DNA from: Patescibacteria group bacterium
Lineage (GTDB): Bacteria; Patescibacteriota; Minisyncoccia; 2-02-FULL-40-12
DNA: 64,000 nt
Assembly (NCBI GenBank): GCA_038063995.1
Contig: JBBTUA010000007.1
Coordinates: 5,219-69,218, forward strand
Reading direction: 5' to 3'
Shown here: piece after piece, positions 3,381 to 58,099 of the stretch
How the letters are laid out: every line of letters begins with the position of its first letter
Position numbering within the stretch: position 1 is the stretch's first letter
Notes under the pieces: generated by a model
The model's input: only the letters and a program-made list of their open reading frames with translations
The model's database searches: none
What the model was told of the DNA's origin: nothing
Program-made: the position numbers and the translations under genes

Positions 3381-3712
3381 AAATTTCTCAAATCATAATT
3401 CCCCCACCGCCGGTTCAAGGACGGGGTTTGACTTTATCTGAATTTGGACAACTTATAGCCATTGTCGGTTCATTTTTGCAAACTATTGCAGTTTTATTGG
3501 CCATCATCGCTATTATTGTTTCCGGAATTATGTATATGAAAGCCGGAGCAAATCCGGATTCAGCAAAAAAAGCTTTGGCCTGGTTCAAAAACGCTTTAAT
3601 CGGTGCTTTTATTATTCTGGCTGTTGGACTAATTATAAATACCATTGCCAATATAGTTACCAGACAATTTTTTTGCCGGTTCAGCGTTTTCGGCCAATGT
3701 ATAATTCAATGA
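3368..3712 (+). CDS. pilin-like small membrane protein, paralog 2
   Basis: SGIMYMKAGANPDSAKKALAWFKNALIGAFIILAVGLIINTIANIV. Confidence 0.5.
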   Translation: MSKLEISQIIIPPPPVQGRGLTLSEFGQLIAIVGSFLQTIAVLLAIIAIIVSGIMYMKAGANPDSAKKALAWFKNALIGAFIILAVGLIINTIANIVTRQFFCRFSVFGQCIIQ

Positions 3713-5385: not shown

Positions 5386-5412
5386 ATAAAAGCCCGCCTA
5401 ATAAGGCGGGCG
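5386..5412 (-). terminator. terminator hairpin serving hsp20 (minus strand)
   Basis: GCCCGCC TAATAA GGCGGGC; on the minus strand it is followed by TTTTATTTGTTT. Confidence 0.5.
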
Positions 5413-5925: not shown

Positions 5926-6642
5926 TTATGTTGATACACTCTGGATAAGCTGTTTATGCCGCTGTTTTAGCCTGTCGAAAAGTATAAGCAAAGAGACCAT
6001 CATTCCCAAAAGAAGTACGGTATTTCCTGGCAAAGCCGCGCTCGGGTCTATAAAAATTAAATAATTAAAGATTAAATGGAGAAATGAGGCCAAAATTAGT
6101 CCAAAAGCAACAATTTGTTTTTTGAAATGGTAAAAAAACCAGGCAAGACCCAAGAAGTAGCCGACTATTCCCGAAGCAAGGGCATGAAGCAATGTTGCTC
6201 CGGTGAATCTAAGAGCGATGATTCCAAAAGTCGCGGCAAAGCCTTCGGGATAGATTTTGAAAGCGATAAGTATATTTTCCATAGCCGCAAAGCCTAAAGC
6301 CGCGGCAATCATATAGATTATCGAATCGTGGGGTTCGTCAAAATCCGGTTTTGCCACGACCGAATGCCGAACAACCCAGTACTTCATATATTCTTCGATA
6401 AAAGCAGCCAAAGTGAAAAATGCGACGGCGCTGGAAACCACTCCTCTGAAAATGCTCGAAGCCGCGGCTTCGAGCATTACCACGACCGGAGCAATAACTA
6501 TGCCGAATAGAAAAACCTTTACGATAAGATATTTTGGTTCCGGTCTCGAATCTTTTGTGAGAAAAATCAAAAGCCAGACTATGCTTGGCAAGAGGCCGAG
6601 AATAACAAGAAAAACATTTGTGGGTATGTTTATTTGGGCCAT
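5926..6642 (-). CDS. PrsW-family intramembrane metalloprotease (putative)
   Basis: polytopic; EEYMKYW and GFAAMEN motifs; start moved to internal Met (MAQINIPT) to avoid 120-nt overlap with valS. Confidence 0.5.
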   Translation of the reverse strand: MAQINIPTNVFLVILGLLPSIVWLLIFLTKDSRPEPKYLIVKVFLFGIVIAPVVVMLEAAASSIFRGVVSSAVAFFTLAAFIEEYMKYWVVRHSVVAKPDFDEPHDSIIYMIAAALGFAAMENILIAFKIYPEGFAATFGIIALRFTGATLLHALASGIVGYFLGLAWFFYHFKKQIVAFGLILASFLHLIFNYLIFIDPSAALPGNTVLLLGMMVSLLILFDRLKQRHKQLIQSVST

Positions 6643-8771
6643 TGTTCGACTAAAAGCATTTTTTTGTTTTTTATAGGCAGTTTTGACCAGATTTCTTCGG
6701 TTAAAAAAGGCATAAATGGATGGAGAAGTTTTAACTGATTCGCCAGAAGCCACAAAAGAACTTCAGTTTTTTGAATTTTGTCATTTGAATTTTGGATTTT
6801 TTGTTTCGCATCTTCTATATAAATGGAGGCAAAGCGATTCCAGAAAAAGCTGTAAATTTCGCTTACAGCCTGGCTGAACCTGAATTTATTTATATTTTCC
6901 TGTGCAAGCGGAATAAGTCTTTTGAGTTCTTCAATAAATTCTTTATCCATTGTATCAAGTTTTGAAGGCAGTTTTAACTCATAGCCGTCTTCTTTCGCTA
7001 AAGCTTTGGAGGACTCGCCGATTTGTATTAAAACAAATCGGCTCGCGTTCCAGATTTTATTGGCGAATTTTCTGCCGGCATCGATAACGTCTTCGTTGAA
7101 TCTTATATCTTGGATGCCGGTTGTTTGAAAAGCTAAACCAAAACGGAGAGCGTCAGCTCCATATTTTTCGATTAAGACGAGAGGATCAATGCCTGTTCCA
7201 AGACTTTTAGACATTCTTTGGCCTTCTTTGGTCAGAACCGTAGCGTGAATATATACATCTTTGAATGGTGGTTTTCCAGTGAATTCCAAACCTGAAAAAA
7301 TCATTCTTGCTTGCCATAAATAACGGATGCCTCGATCCGAAGTAATGAAATCAGTCGGATAATATTCAGTTAAGTCTTTTGTCTTTTCCGGCCAACCTAA
7401 AACCGCAAACGGCCAAAGGGCAGAAGAGAACCAGGTGTCTAAAACATCTTCTTCGCCTTCAATAGGAATTTTATGTCCCCACCAAATCTGCCTTGAAATA
7501 TTCCAATCATGCATATTATCAAGCCAAGTGATCATATCTTCTTTCCATTTTTCAGGATGAATACGGACAGAACCGGTTGTGATTGCTTTTTTTGCCAATT
7601 CAGCAAGTTCCCTCATTTTTAAAAACCATTGTTTTGAATAGAGAGGTTCAATTATTGTTCCGCATCTTTCACAGTGGCCGATGTTATGGACCAATTCCTC
7701 GATTTTTTCGATCAGCCCCAGCTCATTCAGCTTTTCAATGACTTTTTGGCGGCAATCTTTTGTTGAAAGCCCTTGGCAGAGCAGACCGGCCTTTTCGGTC
7801 ATCTTTCCGTTTTTATCGATTATCTCTAAAACTTCGAGATTGCGGCGCTGGGAAATTTCAAAATCTTCGACTGAATGGGCCGGAGTCACTTTTACCGCGC
7901 CGGTCCCGAAAGAGATATCAATTGATTCGTCGGCGATTATCGGGATTTCCCGATCTTGGATCGGCAGAATTACTTTTTTGCCGATTAGATTTTTATATCT
8001 TTCATCATTGGGATTTACGGCTACTGCAGTGTCGCCAAGCATTGTTTCGGGCCTTGTAGTCGCTACGACTACATATTCTGTTTGCCGGTCCTCCGAAGCT
8101 TTAGCGAAGGAGGACTCTCTCACCAATGGGTATCTTATGAAATATAACTTTCCTTCCGTTTCTTTGTATTCAACCTCTAAATCAGAAATGGCGCTTTGGC
8201 ATCTTGGACACCAATTTATTACTCGATAACCTTGGTATATCCAATCCTTCTTTTTATAATGGTTAAACGCTTCAGAGACCGCTTTCTGGTAGTTTTCGTC
8301 CATTGTAAATCTTAGGCGCGACCAATCAACCGAAAGGCCTAATTTTTTAAACTGTTCTAGAATTTTTCCTCCAGATTTTTCTTTCCACTGCCAGACCCTT
8401 TCCAGGAATTTTTCCCGGCCAAGGTTCTGACGGGTAAGCCCCTCCTTTTTTAATTCTTTTTCAACGACATTCTGGGTGGCAATCCCGGCATGGTCGATTC
8501 CCGGCACCCAAAGCGTTTGATAACCCTGCATCCTTTTCATCCTTATGATTATATCAGCCAAGGTGTTTTCAAGAGCGTGGCCGATATGAAGTTCGCCGGT
8601 AATGTTTGGAGGAGCAATGCAAGAAACAAATTTTCGTGATGTAAACCTATCCTCCTTCGCTGAAGCTACGGAGGACAGTCCTTCTGGACTGAAAAAGCCG
8701 CTTTCTTCCCAGAGCTTATAGATTCGGTCTTCAACTTCATTTGGATTATAAGCTTTTGACAGTTCAGTCAT
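6630..8771 (-). CDS. valS: valine--tRNA ligase
   Basis: PPNITGELHIGHA HIGH region, KMSKS motif; carries two in-frame copies of the cgaag/cttcg repeat (8089-8117, 8648-8674). Confidence 0.85.
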   Translation of the reverse strand: MTELSKAYNPNEVEDRIYKLWEESGFFSPEGLSSVASAKEDRFTSRKFVSCIAPPNITGELHIGHALENTLADIIIRMKRMQGYQTLWVPGIDHAGIATQNVVEKELKKEGLTRQNLGREKFLERVWQWKEKSGGKILEQFKKLGLSVDWSRLRFTMDENYQKAVSEAFNHYKKKDWIYQGYRVINWCPRCQSAISDLEVEYKETEGKLYFIRYPLVRESSFAKASEDRQTEYVVVATTRPETMLGDTAVAVNPNDERYKNLIGKKVILPIQDREIPIIADESIDISFGTGAVKVTPAHSVEDFEISQRRNLEVLEIIDKNGKMTEKAGLLCQGLSTKDCRQKVIEKLNELGLIEKIEELVHNIGHCERCGTIIEPLYSKQWFLKMRELAELAKKAITTGSVRIHPEKWKEDMITWLDNMHDWNISRQIWWGHKIPIEGEEDVLDTWFSSALWPFAVLGWPEKTKDLTEYYPTDFITSDRGIRYLWQARMIFSGLEFTGKPPFKDVYIHATVLTKEGQRMSKSLGTGIDPLVLIEKYGADALRFGLAFQTTGIQDIRFNEDVIDAGRKFANKIWNASRFVLIQIGESSKALAKEDGYELKLPSKLDTMDKEFIEELKRLIPLAQENINKFRFSQAVSEIYSFFWNRFASIYIEDAKQKIQNSNDKIQKTEVLLWLLANQLKLLHPFMPFLTEEIWSKLPIKNKKMLLVEQWPK

Positions 8772-8792
8772 AAATCCATTCTACCTTAAAAT

Positions 8793-9929
8793 TCACCAAC
8801 TTTTAATTTTCAGATTTGGCTCGGCTTTTATTTCTTTCAATTTTTTTGCTCCTTTATTTTTAAATTTGTAGAATCCGGCCAGAGCGATCATCGCTGCATT
8901 GTCGCCGGTATATTGAAAATCCGGCTGGGAGTAGGCGACCCCCATTTTTTTCGCTTCCTTTTCAAGGGTTTTTCTCAAAAGTTTGTTGGCCGAAACTCCT
9001 CCTGAAAGAAAAATTGATTTGGCTTTGAAATTTTTTGCCGCGCTGACCGTTTTTTTAACCAAAACATCTATTACCGCCTGCTGGAATTCGCGGCAGATCT
9101 GATTGATCAGATTTTCGTCCAATTTTATTTTCTTTTCTTCGAATTCTCTCAATTTATAAAGGACCGAGGTCTTAAGTCCGGAAAATGAAAAATTGTAATT
9201 GCCGGAATTGATCATTGGTCTTGGAAATTCAATTTTGATTTTTGATTTTTGATTTTTGATTTTTGCGGCGCGAAGCGACACGACAGGTCCTCCCGGGTAT
9301 CCAAGATTCATCATTTTCGCAACTTTATCAAATGCTTCGCCTGCCGCATCATCCATGGTTTCGCCGATAAGTTTGTATTTTCCGTGATTAGACATCAGTA
9401 CAAGTTGAGTATGTCCGCCTGAAACAATCAGATTTAGGGCCGGAAATATCTTTTTTGAAAATTGTAAATTGGAATTTGAAAATTCTCCAACTGGTTTTAA
9501 CCAGTTGGAGAATATGTGTCCTTCCAAATGATTTACTGGAATAAAAGGTTTATTCCAAAGTTTGGCAATATCTTCGGCAAAGTGTATTCCTTTCCATAAG
9601 GCGATTTCAAGGCCCGGGCCTTGGGTTACGGCAACCAAGTCTATATCTGCCATTTTTGTTTTCGCTTTGACTAGGGCTTTTTTGAAAACCGGCGCCAAAT
9701 TTTTTTCGTGTTCTCTCGCGGCTAAAGAAGGAACAACTCCGCCAAAAGGAGAATGGATTTTTATTTGGGATGAAACAATGTTGCTTAAAACTTTTATTGT
9801 TTCTTGCCCTTCCGAAGCTTTACTGTGTCCCTCCGTAGCCTTTGGCGAAGGAGGACGCGAAGGAGGGTTTTCTTTAAGCACTGCGACTGAAGTCTCGTCG
9901 CAAGATGTTTCGATTCCGAGGATAAACAT
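8793..9929 (-). CDS. tsaD: tRNA N6-adenosine threonylcarbamoyltransferase TsaD
   Basis: MFILGIETSCDETSVAVL N-terminus, Kae1/YgjD fold; low-complexity insert PPSRPPSPKATEGHSKASEGQ encoded by repeat copies (9808-9868). Confidence 0.85.
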   Translation of the reverse strand: MFILGIETSCDETSVAVLKENPPSRPPSPKATEGHSKASEGQETIKVLSNIVSSQIKIHSPFGGVVPSLAAREHEKNLAPVFKKALVKAKTKMADIDLVAVTQGPGLEIALWKGIHFAEDIAKLWNKPFIPVNHLEGHIFSNWLKPVGEFSNSNLQFSKKIFPALNLIVSGGHTQLVLMSNHGKYKLIGETMDDAAGEAFDKVAKMMNLGYPGGPVVSLRAAKIKNQKSKIKIEFPRPMINSGNYNFSFSGLKTSVLYKLREFEEKKIKLDENLINQICREFQQAVIDVLVKKTVSAAKNFKAKSIFLSGGVSANKLLRKTLEKEAKKMGVAYSQPDFQYTGDNAAMIALAGFYKFKNKGAKKLKEIKAEPNLKIKSW

Positions 9930-10024
9930 GGTTTAGATTCTATCATTTTATCTTTAATTATCAACTTTTTAGTATTGAACTCGCGATATTTATTTGTTAG
10001 CATATAATCATTAGTTTATATTAC

Positions 10025-10096
10025 GGCCCCATCGTCTAACAGTTAGGACAGCTTTCTTTCAAGAAGCAAATAGGGGTGCGACTCCCCTTGGGGCTG
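10025..10096 (+). tRNA. tRNA-Glu (anticodon TTC), atypical D and T loops
   Basis: acceptor GGCCCCA/TGGGGCT, anticodon loop CTTTCAA; D loop lacks GG and T loop reads TGCGACT (G at position 55). Confidence 0.55.
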
Positions 10097-10097
10097 C

Positions 10098-10784
10098 ATG
10101 AATCCTAGGAAAGATTATCAAACGGCTTTAGCACTTCGTTTAGAAGGGAAAACTTACGGAGAGATAAGGTCTATTTTTGGAATCCCAAAATCTACTCTTA
10201 GTGTTTGGTTTTCTAAATTAAAGGTTGGCAAAAAAGCTCAAAAGATTCTTGAGTCAAAAAGAAAGAATGGCTATTTCAAATTAGTCGAATTTAATAAAAT
10301 TAGGACACTAAATATTAAAGAAGAGAATGAGACAATTAGGAAAGATTATGAATCTAAAATTAGTAGATTAAGCAACCGAGAACTAATGATACTTGGAGCC
10401 GCTTTATACTGGGGAGAAGGTTATAAAAATTTCAAACTTAAAAAAGGGTACTACCCGTATGTTTGTTTTGGTAATTCTGATCCCTTAATGGTAAAAGTAT
10501 TTATAAGTTTTCTAGAAAGAATTCTAAAAATTGATAGAGACGAAATTAAATGCCAGATTATGATTTATCCAAGCATTAATCCTTCAGAAGCACTTAAATA
10601 TTGGCAGAATACTACAAAAATTCCAATTGAAAATTTTAGAACACAAATGACCGTTAGTCGTGCGAGTCAAGGGAAAAGGCCATGGAATCTGCTTCCATAC
10701 GGAACTCTACAAATGCGTCTTAATAAACGACAAAATTTTTTCAAAATTAAAGGTTTAATTGATGGTGTTATAAAAGGAGTTTAA
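10098..10784 (+). CDS. HTH-domain protein of unknown function immediately 3' of tRNA-Glu (possible homing-endonuclease/mobile-element relic)
   Basis: N-terminal resolvase-like HTH (KTYGEIRSIFGIPKSTLSVWF); LMILGAALYWGEGYK loosely LAGLIDADG-like; very AT-rich. Confidence 0.4.
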   Translation: MNPRKDYQTALALRLEGKTYGEIRSIFGIPKSTLSVWFSKLKVGKKAQKILESKRKNGYFKLVEFNKIRTLNIKEENETIRKDYESKISRLSNRELMILGAALYWGEGYKNFKLKKGYYPYVCFGNSDPLMVKVFISFLERILKIDRDEIKCQIMIYPSINPSEALKYWQNTTKIPIENFRTQMTVSRASQGKRPWNLLPYGTLQMRLNKRQNFFKIKGLIDGVIKGV

Positions 10785-10909
10785 TAAGTACTTTAAAATT
10801 CTATCTGTTGATAACTTACTCAATTTATTGCGATATAATAATTATAAGTGTCGCCCTCTTGGCGAATGGTCGAGAAATCTAATTAATTAAAATTTTTTAT
10901 ACAAATTTT

Positions 10910-11086
10910 ATGGCTAAACTTACTTATGCTCTGGTAATTATTGGAAGCCTTAACTGGGGGCTGGTAGGACTGGCTGGCTATGACGTGGTGGCTGCTATAT
11001 TTGGTGATGCAAGCGCAGTTTCAAGAGTTATTTATGTTTTGGTTGGATTGAGCGCCCTTTGGATGCTTTTCTCCGGCCGGAAATAG
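10910..11086 (+). CDS. DUF378-family small membrane protein
   Basis: 58 aa, not in ORF track (<60 aa): MAKLTYALVIIGSLNWGLVGLAGYDVVAAIFG matches the DUF378 signature. Confidence 0.6.
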   Translation: MAKLTYALVIIGSLNWGLVGLAGYDVVAAIFGDASAVSRVIYVLVGLSALWMLFSGRK

Positions 11087-11100
11087 TAAGAGCAGTTCTA

Positions 11101-11139
11101 AAATAAAACAGCCCATAAACTTAGGGCTGTTTTATTTTG
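11101..11139. terminator. bidirectional terminator hairpin
   Basis: AAAACAGCCC ataaactta GGGCTGTTTT with T-tracts on both sides; lies between convergent DUF378 gene and rplT. Confidence 0.55.
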
Positions 11140-11479
11140 CAGTTTCGACTACTTTTTTGAAAACTTCCGGATACCCTTCAGCGAGTTCGGCCAATACCTT
11201 TCTGTCTAATTGAATATTGGCCCTTTTTAAATTATTGATGAATTTGCTGTAATTGATATCGCCGTTCATTCTTGTCGCTGCGTTAATTTTGATCTGCCAC
11301 AGTCTTCGCATATTTCTTTTCTTTTGCTTGCGGCCGATAAAGGCGTTGCGCCAAGCATGATAAAGGGCTTCTTTGGCCGCCCGATACTTTGATTTTCTGG
11401 ACCATTTAAAACCCTTGGCTGCTTTAAGCAGTTTTTTCCTTCTTTTATTTGCAATTGTCCCCCGCTTGACTCTGGTCAT
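11132..11479 (-). CDS. rplT: 50S ribosomal protein L20
   Basis: MTRVKRGTIANKRRKKLLKAAKGF N-terminus. Confidence 0.9.
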   Translation of the reverse strand: MTRVKRGTIANKRRKKLLKAAKGFKWSRKSKYRAAKEALYHAWRNAFIGRKQKKRNMRRLWQIKINAATRMNGDINYSKFINNLKRANIQLDRKVLAELAEGYPEVFKKVVETAK

Positions 11480-11670
11480 GGCAGTAGCTGTTTCACCGCT
11501 TTTTCATCGGATTTGGCTATCAAAAATTCTTTGCGGTCCTTTCTGCTTTTTTTGCTAGATTCTTTGGCTTCAAAGTGATTCATTTTTGTGCTGCGTCTCA
11601 ATAACTTTCCCGTGCCAGTCACTTTAATGCGCTTAACCATCGCTTTTTTCGGTCTAAAGCCTTTTGACAT
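11476..11670 (-). CDS. rpmI: 50S ribosomal protein L35
   Basis: MSKGFRPKKAMVKRIKVTGTGKLLRR. Confidence 0.85.
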   Translation of the reverse strand: MSKGFRPKKAMVKRIKVTGTGKLLRRSTKMNHFEAKESSKKSRKDRKEFLIAKSDEKAVKQLLP

Positions 11671-12211
11671 TTCTTTTTACTATTATATTCAAACTTCGTC
11701 CCTGCGATTTTATCTGGCTTTCCGGTTCAAACGGCTCTTTTATGAATTCTAGAAATTTTTTTATCTTTTCTCTTCCTAGGTCTTTCATCACCATTTGCCG
11801 CCCTCTTAATTGAAGCTCGATCTGAACTTTATCCCCTTTCTTTAAAAACTCGTCTATCTTTTTTGATTTGATCTCCAGATCGTGTTCGCCCGTGGTCAAG
11901 CCTATTTTTATGGTCTTTACTTCGGTCTTTGCTCCTTTGGCTTTTTTTCTTTCGCTTTTTTCCCTTTCATAAAGCCATTTGCCGTAATCCATTATCTTGG
12001 CAATCGGCGGGTTTTGCTGGGGAGCGATCTCAACCAGGGTAAGATTTTTTTCTTGGGCCATTCTTATGGCTTCTGCCGTATTTAAAACGCCGAGCTTTTG
12101 ACCGTTCTCATCGATTACTAAAACTTGAGGCGCTTTAATTTGATAATTTGATCGGGGTCGCCTGAAGATAGCCAATGGATTCAGTTTAGCACCGGATCGT
12201 GGAATATTCAA
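11654..12211 (-). CDS. infC: translation initiation factor IF-3
   Basis: conserved IF3 N- and C-domains; canonical infC-rpmI-rplT order; true start may be a non-ATG (ATT) codon internal to the ORF. Confidence 0.8.
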   Translation of the reverse strand: MNIPRSGAKLNPLAIFRRPRSNYQIKAPQVLVIDENGQKLGVLNTAEAIRMAQEKNLTLVEIAPQQNPPIAKIMDYGKWLYEREKSERKKAKGAKTEVKTIKIGLTTGEHDLEIKSKKIDEFLKKGDKVQIELQLRGRQMVMKDLGREKIKKFLEFIKEPFEPESQIKSQGRSLNIIVKRNVKRL

Positions 12212-12217
12212 GCAACT

Positions 12218-12580
12218 TTGCCCATTCGCAATATTCGTGGTATAGTTAAATTAGCTATTTTGAAAGGGGGTGATTTGATGGCAACCGGATTTTACAAAGC
12301 ACAGTTTTTTGTTCCTGATCGCGTGCTTATTGAAGAAGTAGATTTGGTTGTCTGGGTCGTTGAGTACGAGATAGAATACTATTTCAAAAACGGTGCTCTG
12401 TTCGATATTCCTTCAAAAAAAGAGGCTCTCGAACAGAAATACGGATTGCCCGTTTATGTGAAATTGGTTGCGGTTCCAAAAGTCAGAATCGCTCCAGTTT
12501 CTCAAGTTCAGACCCAGGTTCGTCGCCGCCCCTGGCTTGGTTCGATGATCCATCGAATCAGCACTTTCTTTAATTTCTGA
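12218..12580 (+). CDS. hypothetical protein
   Basis: 120-aa ORF upstream of smpB; no motif recognised. Confidence 0.3.
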   Translation: MPIRNIRGIVKLAILKGGDLMATGFYKAQFFVPDRVLIEEVDLVVWVVEYEIEYYFKNGALFDIPSKKEALEQKYGLPVYVKLVAVPKVRIAPVSQVQTQVRRRPWLGSMIHRISTFFNF

Positions 12581-12650
12581 AGCCGCCGCGTTCTCCGTGA
12601 GAACTTGGCGGCTTTTGCGTTTTTATAGCTTAGCTGATTTAATTATTTTA

Positions 12651-13094
12651 ATGACATACGCCGAAAACAGAAAAGCTTGGCATGATTATGAGATCATTGA
12701 AACTTTTGAAGCCGGAATAGTTCTTGAAGGACACGAGGTAAAATCGGTGAAGACCGGAAAAATATCTATTGCAGGCTCGTATATTAAAATTTCAGACGGA
12801 GAGGTTTTTTTAGTTGGTTCAACTATTTCTCCCTACCAACCGAAAAACACGCCCAAAGATTATGATTCCCAGCGAAACAGAAAACTGCTTTTGAACAAAA
12901 AAGAAATAGATGGTTTGATTGGCAAGTCAAAAGAGAAAGGATTGACAGTCGTGCCTTTAAAGGCGTATAATAAGAAAGGTAGAATCAAGATTGAGATAGG
13001 GTTGGCTAAAGCAAGAAAGAAAAGAGATAAAAGAGACGTCATAAAGAAAAAGGAAGAGCAAAGAAAGATCGAAAGAACGCTTAAACAGTATTAA
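12651..13094 (+). CDS. smpB: SsrA-binding protein SmpB
   Basis: NRKAWHDYEIIETFEAGIVLEGHEVKSVK; start set at internal Met MTYAENRKA. Confidence 0.85.
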   Translation: MTYAENRKAWHDYEIIETFEAGIVLEGHEVKSVKTGKISIAGSYIKISDGEVFLVGSTISPYQPKNTPKDYDSQRNRKLLLNKKEIDGLIGKSKEKGLTVVPLKAYNKKGRIKIEIGLAKARKKRDKRDVIKKKEEQRKIERTLKQY

Positions 13095-13123
13095 CTCGAT
13101 ATTTCGATATATCATTAAATTGC

Positions 13124-13474
13124 GGGGGTGCAAGTTTCGACGGAACTTTCAAAAGAAAAATTGCTGGTTGTGCATGGCTGTAATCACATAAAAAGTTCAG
13201 CCAACAAATAGGTGCAAACTATAAACCTGCACTTGCTTACGCCTAAAAGCGCGTAGGCCGCTTTATCTGCAATGTTCTCGGTAGCAGAATAGAGCGTCAG
13301 ACACCGAGAGAACAAACAGGAGTTTATGCCTAATAAGCTCTTGAGCACCTTTTATTCAGTTAGGCGCTCGGAGATTTTGTCGGCTTTTGACTCCGGGCTT
13401 AAACAAACCGGCTACATCAGCTAAACATTTTTCTGGCGATTTTCCCGGACGGGGGTCCAATCTCCCCACCTCCA
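13124..13474 (+). ncRNA. ssrA: tmRNA (SsrA)
   Basis: immediately 3' of smpB; tRNA-like ends GGGGGTG/CACCTCC with G3-U70 pair; T arm GGGGGTCCAATCTCCCC; internal tag-peptide frame ending ..ANYKPALAYA-TAA (stop at 13243-13245). Confidence 0.8.
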
Positions 13475-13952
13475 CTTCTACGCTAAAGCTTCGAAGTGCA
13501 CGGCACTGAGAAGGTTTACAAAACTCCAAAATTATTTGGAGTTTTGTTTTTGCGTAGAAGTGCCCTGCGTAGCTTTATGCGAAGCAGGGCTTACCTTATA
13601 ATTCAGTTGTGTATTACATCTATATCCTCCAAAGTAAAAAAGACAAAAGTTTCTATACTGGTTTTACAGAGGACCTAAATAAAAGAATCAAAGACCATAA
13701 CTGGTATACTGCTTCGCTAAAGCTACGCAGTACAAGTGAAGTCAGATACACCAGAAGCAAAGCACCATTTGAGTTAGTCTGGTATTGTGCTTTCAAGAGC
13801 AAAAAGAAAGCTCTTGATTTTGAAAAATACTTGAAACAAGGTTCGGGCTTTGCTTTTGCAAGAAAAAGATTAACCTAAAGCGGCGAGGCGCTCGTGCTGC
13901 GTAGCGAAGCCACTTCGCAGAGCAGCGAGAGGCAAAGCCAATCTCCCCACCT
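13475..13952 (+). mobile_element. small islet integrated at the tmRNA 3' end, bounded by a 15-nt direct repeat
   Basis: CCAATCTCCCCACCT occurs at 13457-13471 (inside tmRNA) and again at 13938-13952; islet carries a GIY-YIG gene and four copies of the cgaag/cttcg hairpin repeat. Confidence 0.5.
13609..13878 (+). CDS. GIY-YIG domain protein (COG2827/YhbQ-like small endonuclease), with an in-frame repeat insertion
   Basis: MYYIYILQSKKDKSFYTGFTEDLNKRIKDHN is a GIY-YIG signature; segment WYTASLKLRSTSE is encoded by a repeat copy at 13708-13729. Confidence 0.65.
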   Translation: MYYIYILQSKKDKSFYTGFTEDLNKRIKDHNWYTASLKLRSTSEVRYTRSKAPFELVWYCAFKSKKKALDFEKYLKQGSGFAFARKRLT

Positions 13953-18232: not shown

Positions 18233-19894
18233 GTGATATATTTTAAACTAATGAAGAAGCAAATTCAAGAATTTCTTAGAAAAGAGCACCCGGATATTGA
18301 TTTTGCCGTTTCCTACCCGCCTGAAGGCCTTGGCGACTACTCAACCAACATCGCCTTTCTACTTGCCCGCCAAAGCCTTGGCGAAGGCGGGTTGGCTAAA
18401 AAAACCGGCGGAAATCCGCAAAAACTTGCCTTGAGCATAGTCGAAGGGTTAAGAAACGAATTCAAAAATCAATTTGAAAAAATCGAAATCGCAAAAAACG
18501 GGTTTATAAATTTTTATCTATCTAAAAAGTATTTATTGGATAATCTTTCCGAGGTTCTGAAATTTCCGGATATTGGAAAGAGCAAGACGGTTATAGTTGA
18601 ATATTCCCAGCCCAATATTGCCAAAGTGATGCATGTCGGGCATCTCCGTTCAACGGTTCTGGGCGACGCCCTGGCCAATATCTATGAAGCTTTAGGTTAT
18701 AAAGTTATTCGCTGGAATTATTTGGGCGATTGGGGAACTCAATTCGGGAAATTGATTTCGGCTTATAAGATGTGGGGCAAAGAAGAAGAAGTTAAGACAA
18801 ATCCAATTGAAACTTTAAATGATCTCTATGTAAGATTCCACGACGAATTGAAAAACCGTCCGGAACTGGAAGAAAAAGGGAGAGAAGAATTTAAGAAGCT
18901 CGAAGAAGGAGATGAAGAAAACAGAAAATTATGGAAGTGGTTTAAAAATGAGTCTTTGAAAGAATTTGAAAAGATTTACAGGATTTTAGGAGTTAAATTC
19001 GATACTTATACAGGTGAGAGTTCTTTTGAGAAGGATTTAAAACCTTTAGTCGAAGAATTGCGAAATAAAGGAATAGCCAAAGAGAGCCAAGGCGCTGTTA
19101 TTATTTCTTTGGATCAATTCAATTTGCTTCCAGCCTTGATTCAAAGATCTGACGGAGCAAGCTTGTATCTGACTCGCGATATTGCCGCCTTGAAATACCG
19201 AATCAAAGAATACAAGCCGGAAAAAATTCTTTATGTCGTCGGAAACGAGCAGTCGCTTCATTTTGATCAGCTTAAGGCGATTGCTAAAATCTCGGGCTTA
19301 GATGAAACAGAAATCAGTCATATTAAATTTGGGCTTATTCTCGGAAAAGATAAAAAGAAATTGTCGAGCAGAGAGGGCGGAGCCGTGCCAATAAAAGAAT
19401 TGATAGATAAAGCGGTCGAACTTTCCGGAAAAGCTGTCGGGATCAGCGCGTTAAAATATTTTATTTTAAAAGAGCACCGCTTGAGCGATATAGTTTTTGA
19501 CTGGGATAGAATCCTTAATTTGAAAGGAGACAGCGGTCCTTATCTTCAATATACTTACGCCCGTTTGGCCAGCATTAAGAGTAAAGCCGGGACCATCTCG
19601 AAATCTAAAAATTTAGAATCACTGAATAAAGAAATTGATGTTTCCCTAATGAAAAAAATGATTAAATTTCCCGAGATTCTTACCCTGACCGTCGAGAATA
19701 ACCTTACGAATATCTTAACTCTGTACCTTTATGAGCTTTGCAATTTGATCAATAGATTTTATGAATCGGTTCCAGTCTTAAAGGAAGATGATGAGAAAAT
19801 TAGAAATGCCCGGCTGGGGCTGGTCAGTTTAATGATTCAAATTTTAGAAAAAGGTTTTAATCTTTTAGGAATCGAGGCCCCGGAGAGGATTTAA
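18233..19894 (+). CDS. argS: arginine--tRNA ligase
   Basis: HVGHLRS HIGH region; ArgRS add-1 N-domain and DALR anticodon-binding domain. Confidence 0.9.
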   Translation: MIYFKLMKKQIQEFLRKEHPDIDFAVSYPPEGLGDYSTNIAFLLARQSLGEGGLAKKTGGNPQKLALSIVEGLRNEFKNQFEKIEIAKNGFINFYLSKKYLLDNLSEVLKFPDIGKSKTVIVEYSQPNIAKVMHVGHLRSTVLGDALANIYEALGYKVIRWNYLGDWGTQFGKLISAYKMWGKEEEVKTNPIETLNDLYVRFHDELKNRPELEEKGREEFKKLEEGDEENRKLWKWFKNESLKEFEKIYRILGVKFDTYTGESSFEKDLKPLVEELRNKGIAKESQGAVIISLDQFNLLPALIQRSDGASLYLTRDIAALKYRIKEYKPEKILYVVGNEQSLHFDQLKAIAKISGLDETEISHIKFGLILGKDKKKLSSREGGAVPIKELIDKAVELSGKAVGISALKYFILKEHRLSDIVFDWDRILNLKGDSGPYLQYTYARLASIKSKAGTISKSKNLESLNKEIDVSLMKKMIKFPEILTLTVENNLTNILTLYLYELCNLINRFYESVPVLKEDDEKIRNARLGLVSLMIQILEKGFNLLGIEAPERI

Positions 19895-40224: not shown

Positions 40225-40312
40225 TTTCGCCGCCTGCGGCGGCGAGAAAGTCCCCCCGCCTGCGTGGCCGAAGCCACTTCGGCGAGGCGAAGGCCCGCGA
40301 AAATTCGGAAAG
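40225..40312. repeat. GC-rich hairpin repeat cluster (cgaagccacttcg family)
   Basis: CGCCGCC tgc GGCGGCG; CCGAAGCCACTTCGG; the same GCGAAGCCACTTCGC core recurs at 13897-13925. Confidence 0.55.
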
Positions 40313-41183: not shown

Positions 41184-41226
41184 GGTTCGAGCCTTCGCTA
41201 AAGCTATGGATGGGCACAGCGAACCG
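41184..41226. repeat. cgaag/cttcg-family repeat copy in the lepB-toxin intergenic region
   Basis: GGTTCGAG CCTTCGCTAAAGCTATGGA .. CGAACC. Confidence 0.6.
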
Positions 41227-53951: not shown

Positions 53952-54091
53952 TATATGGATAGGAATCCATATATTTACGGCATTCGATTGTAATAAGTAA
54001 TTACTTATTACAATCTCTTTTGTAAATATGAACAGATTTTATAAAATTTAATTTTTTTTAGCGATTTTAGCGAGCCCCGCTAAGCGGGGCT
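53952..54091 (+). promoter_or_regulatory. structured rpsJ-rplC intergenic region with three hairpins/palindromes
   Basis: TATATGGAT agga ATCCATATA (53952-53973); perfect 28-bp palindrome ATTGTAATAAGTAA/TTACTTATTACAAT (53987-54014); GCCCCGC taa GCGGGGC then TTTAATTT (54069-54098). Confidence 0.5.
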
Positions 54092-57385: not shown

Positions 57386-57466
57386 TAGCTCTCCTTCGCT
57401 AAAGCTTCGGAGGAGCACTTCTTCGCTAGAAGAAATGCTTGCACTTCGAAGCTCCGAAGGAGCGAA
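57386..57466. repeat. nested inverted-repeat element (cgaag/cttcg family) inserted between rplV and rpsC
   Basis: TCCTTCGCTAAAGCTTCGGAGGAG followed by CACTTCTTCGCT .. AGCGAAGAAGTG inverted repeats. Confidence 0.7.
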
Positions 57467-57469
57467 GAA

Positions 57470-58099
57470 GTGGGACAAAAAACTTCACCAATTTCAATGA
57501 GAATAGGTTTTACCCAGGATTGGCGCTCCCGGTATTTTTCCGAACGCGAAATGATCAAGTACCTTAAAGAGGATGTAAAGATCCGCCAGTTTTTGGAGAA
57601 GAAATTAAGATTTATGAATGTAGATCGGATTGAGATCGAGAGAACCGCCGGCCAGCTGAAAGTCATTATTTTCACCTCGCGGCCCGGTTTGATTATCGGC
57701 CGGGCAGGAAGCGGAAGCGAAGAGCTTAAAAAAGAAATTGACAAGCTTATCAAAAGCTCTGTTCCTGTAAGGATTGAAATTCAGGAATATAGAAATTCTG
57801 AAAGTTCTGCGGCTATTATGGCTGAACAGATTATTGAGAGAATCGAAAAAAGAGTGCCTTTCCGCAGGGTAATAAAACAGGCATTGTCGAAAATAATCTC
57901 TAACCGGGAGGTAAAAGGGGCAAAGATCGAAATTAAAGGCCGTTTGGACGGAGCCGAGATAGCCAGAACCGAGCATTTAGAGCAGGGTTTGATGCCTCTT
58001 CAGAAATTGACCGCTGATATCGATTTTGCTAAAAATACTGCTTACACCACCTATGGAACAGTAGGGGTGAAGGTATGGATATACAAAAGGAATATTTAA
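57470..58099 (+). CDS. rpsC: 30S ribosomal protein S3
   Basis: (GTG start) GQKTSPISMRIGF; KH domain. Confidence 0.9.
   Translation: MGQKTSPISMRIGFTQDWRSRYFSEREMIKYLKEDVKIRQFLEKKLRFMNVDRIEIERTAGQLKVIIFTSRPGLIIGRAGSGSEELKKEIDKLIKSSVPVRIEIQEYRNSESSAAIMAEQIIERIEKRVPFRRVIKQALSKIISNREVKGAKIEIKGRLDGAEIARTEHLEQGLMPLQKLTADIDFAKNTAYTTYGTVGVKVWIYKRNI

Follow-up and report, generated by a model that had tools for sequence, protein, structure and literature searches.

The DNA considered here is a window of 64,000 nucleotides (64 kb) from a Patescibacteria group bacterium (contig JBBTUA010000007.1, positions 5,219 to 69,218), with a G+C content of 41% and a gene content of the candidate phyla radiation (CPR)/Patescibacteria type. 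Dispersed over this window are copies of a short palindromic hairpin, called below the TWCGC hairpin, which are found in valS (three copies), in tsaD (a nested pair), in argS, in the rplV-rpsC spacer (two copies), and around and inside a gene for a small GIY-YIG protein located behind the tmRNA gene. The copies form a repeat family whose stems covary, whose presence at a given site varies between orthologues, whose in-gene members examined in predicted models lie in loops, which is linked to GIY-YIG genes and to tRNA/tmRNA genes, and which is spread across bacteria. The main genes concerned were delineated from open reading frames (ORFs) and Pfam or by RNA gene searches:

6630-8771, minus strand: valS
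8793-9929, minus strand: tsaD
10025-10097: tRNA-Glu gene
13124-13477: tmRNA gene, 3' of smpB
13609-13878, plus strand: GIY-YIG ORF, 89 amino acids, PF01541

The TWCGC hairpin family

A preliminary description of this DNA had reported that a consensus recurs in it. The 20-nt consensus has seven matches with at most three mismatches in the window, against 0.01 expected, and a covariance model (CM) trained on 41 distinct family members and then run over the window returns ten significant copies, all with E ≤ 2.4e-4. Five of the ten are training members and the other five are independent detections. The copies are the following:

6986-7019, plus strand: valS site 3, degenerate copy, 27.6 bits (E = 3e-5), encoding ESSKALAKEDG
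8083-8116, minus strand: valS site 2, intact copy, 46 bits, encoding SSFAKASEDR
8648-8681, plus strand: valS site 1, intact copy in opposite orientation to site 2, 43.3 bits, encoding SSVASAKEDR
9822-9857, minus strand: inner copy of the tsaD nested pair 9808-9868, 24.5 bits (E = 2.4e-4); it breaks the outer copy after TTCGC, and the pair encodes PSRPPSPKATEGHSKASEGQET
13471-13504, plus strand: hairpin 1, beginning at the last tmRNA bases, stem CACTTC/GAAGTG, 44.8 bits
13557-13591, minus strand: hairpin 2, opposite in orientation to hairpin 1 and about 18 nt before the GIY-YIG start, stem CCCTGC/GCAGGG, 33.3 bits
13705-13738, plus strand: hairpin inside the GIY-YIG ORF, TACTGC-TTCGCTAAAGCTAC-GCAGTA-CAAG, encoding SLKLRSTSEV
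18360-18393, minus strand: argS hairpin, stem CCCGCC/GGCGGG with a CTTG tag, 35.4 bits, encoding ARQSLGEGGLA
57387-57420: first copy of the rplV-rpsC spacer pair (57387..57474, plus strand), 36 bits
57436-57474: second copy of this pair, inverted relative to the first, 34.4 bits

The model recovers the valS copies first placed at 8089-8117 and 8648-8674, those around and in the GIY-YIG gene (13479-13496, 13565-13587 and 13708-13729) and the intergenic repeat at 57386-57466, which consists of two copies. The core had been recognised correctly, but valS site 3 and the argS copy, which lies outside the CM training set, had been overlooked. The tsaD repeat at 9808-9868 is indeed in frame; it is, however, a nested pair and not a single copy. 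As for the repeat reported at 13897-13925, a related hairpin is present, but as a variant with an extended inner stem, GCGAAG-CCA-CTTCGC (CM E = 1.7). The rplV-rpsC spacer sequence is also found in two related Patescibacteria metagenome-assembled genomes (MAGs; L042 and L066). Two other intergenic places had been listed:

41184-41226, plus strand: degenerate remnant, two mismatches to the core, partial CM match (E = 0.18), no stable fold
40225-40312, between convergent genes: GC-rich hairpin cluster, about 70% G+C against 41% for the genome

The first matches the core as claimed, but only as a remnant. The second had been taken for a GC-richer variant; its membership is doubtful and it was not retained (CM E = 2.3, fold z = -0.66), having only an apical GAAGCCACTTC in common with the family. 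The same apical GAAGCCACTTC also caps the hairpin that follows the GIY-YIG gene (13905-13921), and the cluster may represent a second repeat type. Two marginal CM matches, at 5387-5412 and 54069-54091, are ordinary terminator hairpins.

The repeat measures about 30 bases (elements of 26-34 nt; inserts of 27-36 nt, or 66 nt if nested). On the strand labelled here the C strand, it reads outer arm-TWC-GC-loop-GC-TWC-arm-(A)CAAG, that is, a variable 5-7-nt arm, TWC, GC(Y), an AA/GA loop, (R)GC, TWC, the complementary arm and (A)CAAG, the CAAG tail being frequent but not universal among copies; the opposite strand reads GWA-GC-TTTA-GC-GAA. In the shared shape, the 5-7-bp outer stem is followed by a conserved internal loop (3x3, TWC/TWC) and then by an inner stem of GC closed by a TAAA-type apical loop. 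In agreement with the hairpin first proposed, single-strand folding gives this one form (stem, 3x3 loop, GC, tetraloop) for the intact copies, whereas the degenerate copy does not adopt it.

In the 41 copies, 91% of the pair cells are paired; column shuffles give 68%, and sliding the partners gives 27-46%. Four stem pairs adjoining the core were fixed by the rule used to select the copies; covariation is seen at the non-imposed pairs 3-28 (CG 21, UA 12, AU 2) and 4-27 (CG 16, AU 12, UA 8), and at the inner pair 14-17 (UA 27, CG 10). Occasional G-T pairs occur in the stems, and the unpaired letters of the internal and apical loops are almost invariant. Judged from this alignment, a free stem sequence combined with fixed unpaired letters is the pattern expected of a hairpin read by a protein.

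The spread of the family was assessed by scanning the exact 21-mer CCTTCGCTAAAGCTWCGGAGG in one genome per GTDB species. At least 120 matches were found in the species representatives, whereas about 0.5 would be expected by chance (our own estimate, 2 x 596e9 x 2/4^21). Among the matches listed, to which all figures for exact copies refer here and below, at least 10 phyla are represented (Patescibacteria, Bacteroidota, Alpha- and Gammaproteobacteria, Verrucomicrobiota, Planctomycetota, Nitrospirota, Omnitrophota, Elusimicrobiota, Dependentiae and others), mostly by MAGs but also by the isolates Mesorhizobium sp. SOD10 and Taklimakanibacter lacteus and by closed chromosomes. Their flanks widen the consensus to (G/T)CC(C/T)T...GGAGG(G/A)CA(A/G)G. 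Long ORFs hold 22 of 123 copies (about 18%), and eight of ten hairpin-bearing ORFs tested are real genes backed by Pfam, coding for an IleRS-like protein, TopA, DnaG, a histidine kinase, an ATP-dependent DNA ligase, another class-I aminoacyl-tRNA synthetase (aaRS), MutL and GluRS. A tRNA gene lies less than 200 nt from the hairpin at about 18% of the loci. Judged by these matches, the hairpin family is pan-bacterial and not specific to the window genome. The preliminary description had put forward a mobile palindromic family of this genome; its insertions are supported, but the family reaches well beyond the genome and is tied to a GIY-YIG cassette.

The predominance of MAGs and the identity of the 21-mer across phyla could be taken to indicate an assembly, adapter or contamination artefact. 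Isolates and closed chromosomes, however, contain the 21-mer as well. The copies are in frame, degenerate to varying degrees, nested and set in lineage-typical flanks (tRNA-Ser, high-GC alphaproteobacterial DNA), and independent assemblies share orthologous copies with compensatory changes. The probability of an artefact is accordingly close to nil. One hairpin-bearing frame deserves separate mention: in a Saccharibacteria MAG (L029, 2099-5680), it encodes an IleRS-like class-I synthetase with a histidine-phosphatase domain (PF00300) between the catalytic halves; this reflects either the insertion of a domain or read-through across two genes.

In-gene copies in valS, tsaD and argS

Of the six frames in which the hairpin can be read, four contain no stop codon, and the coding copies use only these. 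As initially stated, they are in frame and free of stops and add Ser/Ala/Lys/Glu-rich peptides to the proteins. Site 2 of valS illustrates an intact copy, GTCCTCC-TTC-GC-TAAA-GC-TTC-GGAGGAC.

The closest ValS homologues are only about 74% identical to the window protein. In the ValS alignment, the site-2 peptide SSFAKASEDR occurs in five close homologues (P0001-P0004 and P0006) and is lacking in about 13 others. The site-1 peptide SSVASAKEDR is lacking in all the relatives of about 74% identity and is found unchanged in P0022 and P0023, two proteins of 60-62% identity; the carriers include a 62%-identical Yanofskybacteria protein. At site 3, where the mRNA bears the G-strand and the copy no longer folds, the peptide is missing in most orthologues and P0010 has a larger insert. 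A fourth site holds FAKATEG or SAKASEG in P0002, P0010, P0012, P0015 and P0017, and nothing in the window ValS. The 22-residue TsaD segment PSRPPSPKATEGHSKASEGQET is missing from the TsaD of L121 and L123, and the 10-residue ArgRS insert from three orthologues, while L122 has PSFAKASEGK at a different ArgRS site. Where orthologue DNA was fetched (L121-L123), the ValS peptides are encoded by the same hairpin, older copies being degenerate, and the orthologous site-2 copy of L121 has a compensated stem (GCCCTCC/GGAGGGC for GTCCTCC/GGAGGAC in the window).

Because orthologues, including those of the GIY-YIG protein, either have no such segments or have the peptide in a different position, the segments are, on this comparison, insertions and not ancestral linkers. 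This agrees with the lineage-specific insertion suggested in the preliminary description, which had named orthologues encoding the same peptides by non-repeat sequence as the observation that would contradict it; the orthologues compared show nothing of the kind. The opposite view holds that the peptides are ancestral low-complexity linkers whose coding sequence is palindromic by chance. Their Ser/Ala/Lys/Glu-rich composition and their location in loops that vary in length in other lineages would suit it; yet it is refuted by the orthologue comparisons, and the same nucleotides recur in both orientations, between genes as well as in genes of unrelated kinds from many phyla. Its probability is negligible.

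The surface-loop location first suggested is borne out by the predicted structures. In the AlphaFold ValS model (mean predicted local distance difference test, pLDDT, 88), the only segments with pLDDT below 50 are residues 37-44 (site 1) and 222-229 (site 2), site 3 being at a helix end or loop; in the model of the GIY-YIG protein, the only such segment is the hairpin peptide, residues 36-45.

The surroundings of valS site 1 show an unusual distribution of similarity. This segment is 93-96% identical in nucleotides to that of the Yanofskybacteria locus L122, against a gene-wide mean of 64%, and it is the part least similar to the closer relatives L121 and L123 (8-43% identity); between the window and L122, the inner pair has changed from T-A to C-G in a compensatory manner. 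This local similarity has the appearance of a conversion or transfer event in which the hairpin moved along with its flanks.

At four junctions for which filled and empty sites can be compared, the 5' arm of the hairpin overlaps 2-6 nt already present in the target (CAT ACN GC in the GIY-YIG gene, AAT CCT CTT in tsaD, CC of a Pro codon at valS site 4), with no fixed target-site duplication. These overlaps would fit microhomology-mediated template switching, and are offered as a lead only. A general rule by which the target would supply the outer stem in every case was rejected: two stem alleles, GCCCTCC and GTCCTCC, are found repeatedly in different phyla, and the copy inside the GIY-YIG gene shares its ACTGC stem with the leader hairpins of relatives.

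Palindromes of other kinds occur in the same genes. At 9481-9510, tsaD contains a perfect 30-nt palindrome, TTCTCCAACTGGTT|AACCAGTTGGAGAA, in frame (SNWLKPVGEF) and absent from relatives. It is a local inverted duplication, in which the ancestral SNWL codons are repeated as their reverse complement in the second half, and its sequence is unrelated to that of the hairpin family. An in-frame hexanucleotide microsatellite lies at 9232-9265 of tsaD, (GATTTT)n on the plus strand and (AAAATC)n in the sense strand, and encodes KIKNQKSKIKIE in place of the ENGNPKAF-type segment of relatives. Small palindromes were also seen in the variable valS loops of L121 and L123 (codons ~28-40), namely AAAAATCAGGGCCGGCCGGATTTTT, encoding SGPAG, and AGAGGCCTCT, and the N-terminus of the L121 argS carries a further insert, PRSAGQLGRLASR. 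To judge from these examples, these genes seem prone to palindromic indels in general.

The GIY-YIG cassette behind the tmRNA gene

The GIY-YIG gene, the only one of its kind in the window, codes for a single-domain protein (PF01541 only, E = 6e-17). In the predicted model the GIY-YIG fold is intact, the conserved residues Y, Y, R, H, N and E are present, and the closest solved folds are those of UPF0213 BH0048 (E = 1e-9) and Slx1. Slx1 acts on branched and stem-loop DNA; we know of no Slx4-type partner for the present protein. The group I intron endonuclease family TIGR01453 scores only 16 bits (cut-off 56), the NCBIfam search gave no informative family, and an alphaproteobacterial homologue (locus L036) had no tblastn match in plasmids. 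The window protein and two relatives have 89 residues, whereas homologues mostly have 79. This difference results from an exact 30-nt insert made up of a hairpin plus its tail (13705-13738), for which filled and empty DNA sites are seen among homologous loci.

The gene is the only one in a cassette of about 480 bp, whose further elements are:

13457-13471, plus strand: left copy of CCAATCTCCCCACCT, a 15-nt direct repeat that corresponds to the T-arm/acceptor part at the 3' end of the tmRNA
13470-13592, plus strand: structured leader, fold -40.5 kcal/mol, z = -10
13889-13931, plus strand: variant hairpin downstream of the gene, CTGC-GTA-GCGAAG-CCA-CTTCGC-AGA-GCAG
13938-13952, plus strand: right copy of CCAATCTCCCCACCT, bounding the cassette

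The direct repeat CCAATCTCCCCACCT has exactly two copies in the window, where none is expected. An analogous arrangement is seen in L102, where a duplication of about 90 nt of the tRNA-Pro 3' half brackets the GIY-YIG gene. In all nine loci inspected, the start of hairpin 1 precedes the annotated end of the tRNA/tmRNA by 2-3 nt; the orthologous stem is CACTGC/GCAGTG (L124, L125, L128-L157). Within the leader, a long-range stem (13474-13483 with 13553-13562) surrounds a terminator-like hairpin (13518-13547) plus T-run and is followed by hairpin 2, and both local and long-range pairings covary between the window and L124 (arms CACTGCTTCGC/GCGAAGCAGTG). Hairpin 2 folds as DNA with -10.5 kcal/mol (z = -4), and its position and orientation repeat in many homologous loci. 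The variant downstream hairpin (-14.1 kcal/mol, z = -2.4) recurs nested in the upstream hairpin of L125.

The place of hairpin 1 raises the possibility that the hairpin acts mainly at the RNA level, as a tRNA/tmRNA 3'-trailer, processing or stability signal and as 5'-untranslated structure of the GIY-YIG mRNA, the in-gene copies being by-products. Several observations are in keeping with it: the start of hairpin 1 at the RNA 3' end (9/9 loci), the vicinity of a tRNA gene at about 18% of the exact copies, the strong and covarying fold of the leader and the G-T stem pairs; moreover, no sigma-70-like promoter was found upstream of the GIY-YIG gene in the window, so that co-transcription with the tmRNA is possible. 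It should, however, be noted that both orientations occur in one gene (valS sites 1 and 3 against site 2), that the leader hairpins are mutually inverted, and that the asymmetric loop makes the two strands yield different RNAs. There is no T-run after the hairpins, and Rfam, at gathering and E-value thresholds, returned tRNA and tmRNA only and no hairpin family. Dispersal into ORFs of many phyla would also be left unexplained, and a mainly RNA-level role is distinctly improbable.

The association of hairpin and gene extends to other genomes. Six genome loci among the 21-mer matches contain a GIY-YIG ORF, and in all six a hairpin lies at most 125 nt away. Four alphaproteobacterial loci share the order tRNA, long hairpin, CCTCC hairpin, GIY-YIG start, of which one decayed and two empty versions exist too. 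Linkage was further measured in 80 metagenomic homologue loci with a strict hairpin definition. A hairpin is present within 300 nt upstream of the GIY-YIG homologue in 34 of 74 loci, an enrichment of about 50-fold over the far flanks (7 hairpins per 225 kb, or 0.009 per 300 nt). In the typical layout, a first hairpin, whose C strand is in sense, lies at about -110 to -150, and an inverted second one at about -20 to -30. A tRNA or tmRNA gene on the same strand ends 29-354 nt upstream in 44 of 67 GIY-YIG loci (20 of the 44 being called tmRNA). Within the loci examined, the GIY-YIG gene is the only one that consistently adjoins the hairpins.

A second alternative dispenses with the GIY-YIG protein: the hairpins would be moved by a RAYT-like transposase encoded elsewhere, or by hairpin-mediated template switching requiring no enzyme, and cassette and hairpins would merely share a preference for tRNA 3' ends. 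It draws on the microhomology at the junctions, on the about 95% of exact-21-mer loci without a GIY-YIG gene nearby, on the likeness of the bulged stem and GC-flanked small loop to GTAG-3 repetitive extragenic palindromes (REPs; PMC3733652), and on the unrelated 30-nt tsaD palindrome, which indicates that palindrome-making replication errors occur in this genome. Against it stand the enrichment upstream of the GIY-YIG gene, which is position-specific (two hairpins, at about -130 and about -25), and the fact that this gene alone travels with the hairpins in the ~480-bp cassette. In addition, a terminal GTAG tag is missing, GTAG being internal and in some copies only, and an invariant core in at least 10 phyla argues for a specific protein reader over generic replication error. 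This second alternative appears rather unlikely.

Another ORF, at 10098-10784 on the plus strand (228 amino acids), begins on the base directly after tRNA-Glu. No Pfam family matches it, and its N-terminus alone gives some weak helix-turn-helix matches; it is possibly a further gene cassette set against the 3' end of a tRNA gene.

Comparison with known systems and proposed mechanism

Rickettsia palindromic elements (RPEs) are selfish palindromes located in frame in protein genes; the classical ones measure about 100-150 bp and are specific to Rickettsia. The analogy with RPEs drawn in the preliminary description is sound as regards in-frame insertion into essential protein genes, lineage-specific presence and tolerance as an extra peptide. 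It fails for length (26-34 nt) and for the restriction to Rickettsia, the TWCGC elements being pan-bacterial, and presumably for the consensus as well. In size, the latter resemble the hairpins of REPs and SRMs more than classical RPEs. Compared with miniature inverted-repeat transposable elements, the whole element is one hairpin, and the lack of a fixed target-site duplication is known from the four junctions only.

REPs of the GTAG and CGTC types have been catalogued, including in-frame intragenic copies, and the short Rickettsia elements RPE-4 and RPE-6 are listed among the CGTC REPs (Di Nocera et al., 2013; PMC3733652). GTAG-3 REPs are thought to be mobilised by RAYTs, whereas no dedicated enzyme is given for CGTC REPs, the mobilising enzyme being left open (Di Nocera et al., 2013; PMC3733652). 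Like REPs, the TWCGC hairpins are 20-40-nt imperfect palindromes in many copies with stem covariation; they form inverted dimers and are occasionally intragenic in frame, notably in replication and repair genes, and they share the bulged stem and GC-flanked loop of GTAG-3 REPs. Unlike REPs, they have no terminal GTAG or CGTC tag but (A)CAAG 3' of the C strand, GTAG appearing internally just where W = T/A gives GTA. The adjoining gene codes for a GIY-YIG nuclease and not for a Y1 transposase, and one sequence is found in many phyla, whereas REP families are species- or genus-specific.

The closest parallel is provided by the single-domain GIY-YIG Ssn proteins (cd10448), which are site-specific single-stranded DNA (ssDNA) nucleases (Chenal et al., 2025; PMC11893778). 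Their ssn genes are flanked by CGTC-tagged NTS/SRM hairpin repeats, dispersed in hundreds of copies, and the proteins cut ssDNA beside the hairpin repeats that flank the gene, a system which the authors liken to REP/RAYT (PMC11893778). In both cases a small single-domain GIY-YIG protein (79-94 residues over the two systems, about 80-95 being expected for Ssn) is physically tied to 20-50-nt hairpin repeats that are also scattered genome-wide, an unpaired tag beside the stem orients the repeat, and the occurrence is wide across phyla. The TWCGC hairpins differ by a CAAG/CTTG tag instead of CGTC, by the conserved 3x3 TWC/TWC internal loop, by the position of both leader hairpins upstream of the gene and not on either side, and by a cassette fixed behind tRNA/tmRNA genes, tRNA being never mentioned for Ssn (PMC11893778). 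Moreover, 2% of NTS copies are inside ORFs (PMC11893778), against about 18% of the exact TWCGC copies and most of those in the window.

The GIY-YIG catalytic fold and its conserved residues are shared with I-TevI-type, Slx1 and UPF0213 nucleases, and the local identity of valS site 1 to a distant lineage resembles homing-type co-conversion. Unlike GIY-YIG homing endonucleases, the protein has no DNA-binding domain and is not borne by an intron or intein, and unlike all these nucleases its cassette is bracketed by a duplicated tRNA/tmRNA 3' end.

All in all, it is probable that the TWCGC hairpins are REP/SRM-like repeats with reference copies in the leader of the tRNA/tmRNA-linked GIY-YIG cassette, which would be copied through nicking by the nuclease and repair. 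By analogy with Ssn/NTS, from which we infer specificity, strandedness and copying mechanism, the predicted nuclease would recognise the hairpin extruded in ssDNA by its conserved internal loop, its apical loop and its tail, whatever the sequence of the stem, and would nick next to it. During the subsequent repair, the hairpin would be copied to further sites through microhomology-mediated template switching, through gene conversion that also carries the flanks along, or through both. Copies in ORFs would persist only if their length is a multiple of three, if they use one of the four stop-free frames and if they fall in a surface loop, which would account for the short Ser/Ala/Lys/Glu peptides in ValRS, TsaD, ArgRS and even the nuclease.

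Several points weigh against this proposal. A downstream hairpin is present in just 3 of 75 homologue loci, so that flanking is one-sided, unlike NTS-ssnA-NTS, and, of the loci with the exact 21-mer, no more than about 5% hold a GIY-YIG gene in the 8 kb fetched. The stems differ too: CCTCC or CCGCC predominates among the dispersed in-gene copies, against ACTTC, CCTGC and ACTGC in the three cassette copies. The microhomologies at junctions are known from only four sites. The nearest solved relatives of the protein are UPF0213 and Slx1, the published SRM consensus matches no hairpin copy in the window, and SRM matches occur within 500 nt at only 1 of 83 GIY-YIG homologue loci. Finally, a GIY-YIG nuclease makes no covalent intermediate, which leaves the step from nick to new copy unexplained.

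The TWCGC hairpin is a new sequence variant, and on the same analogy probably a new specificity variant, of the REP/SRM kind. Its unusual traits are the identical core across phyla, the frequent in-frame residence in essential genes, a nuclease gene struck by its own hairpin and the fixed tRNA/tmRNA home. Full-text literature searches gave no description of the hairpin sequence, of its peptides, of CPR palindromes of this kind or of a tRNA/tmRNA-GIY-YIG cassette. A bolder reading, which can be put forward tentatively, is that of an undescribed cross-phylum pair. Its first member would be a promoter-less ~480-bp cassette for a 79-residue SLX1/UPF0213-like GIY-YIG protein, integrating at precise tRNA/tmRNA 3' ends with duplication of the 3' part; the second would be a cognate TWCGC hairpin, of a specificity other than Ssn/SRM, colonising essential genes in frame. 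The pair might spread by homing-like co-conversion or microhomology-mediated template switching, and the pairing might be actively maintained in coding sequence by selection or concerted conversion.

If the GIY-YIG protein reads the hairpin, it would define a second, sequence-distinct class of nuclease/hairpin specificity beside Ssn/NTS, would provide a new site-specific ssDNA nuclease for biotechnology, and would be a concrete candidate for the spreader of short palindromes into essential genes of many phyla, including reduced CPR genomes. The recurrent peptides SFAKA(S/T)EG, SSEALAKE, LRSFSEGG and SLKLRR (in aaRSs, TopA, DnaG, MutL and others) are insertion scars and not functional motifs, to be masked in alignments, phylogenies and domain annotation. 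With its fixed place behind tRNA/tmRNA genes, the cassette may be a minimal mobile one, for which the most conserved bacterial sequences serve as a landing pad.

Two observations concern the SRM-type repeats themselves. The published consensus, HGTCWYN(0-2)YYVSBRHN(0-5)WNVSBRGN(0-2)RNCYNB (PMC11893778), has a sole match in the window, at 2828-2860 on the minus strand (AGTCATACTCGTGATTGCTCACGAGCAGACCGC), in a Gly-rich coding region; with 0.17 expected per shuffle, it is probably due to chance. In L177, which supplies the only SRM matches among the 83 GIY-YIG loci, a canonical NTS-like CGTC hairpin pair (3536-3614; TGTCATTCCCGCGAAGGCGGGAATCCAT and its inverted partner) lies in frame in a ComF-like phosphoribosyltransferase gene, where it encodes HSREGGNP..., 300 nt downstream of a GIY-YIG gene whose leader bears TWCGC hairpins; the two hairpin classes therefore coexist on one contig.

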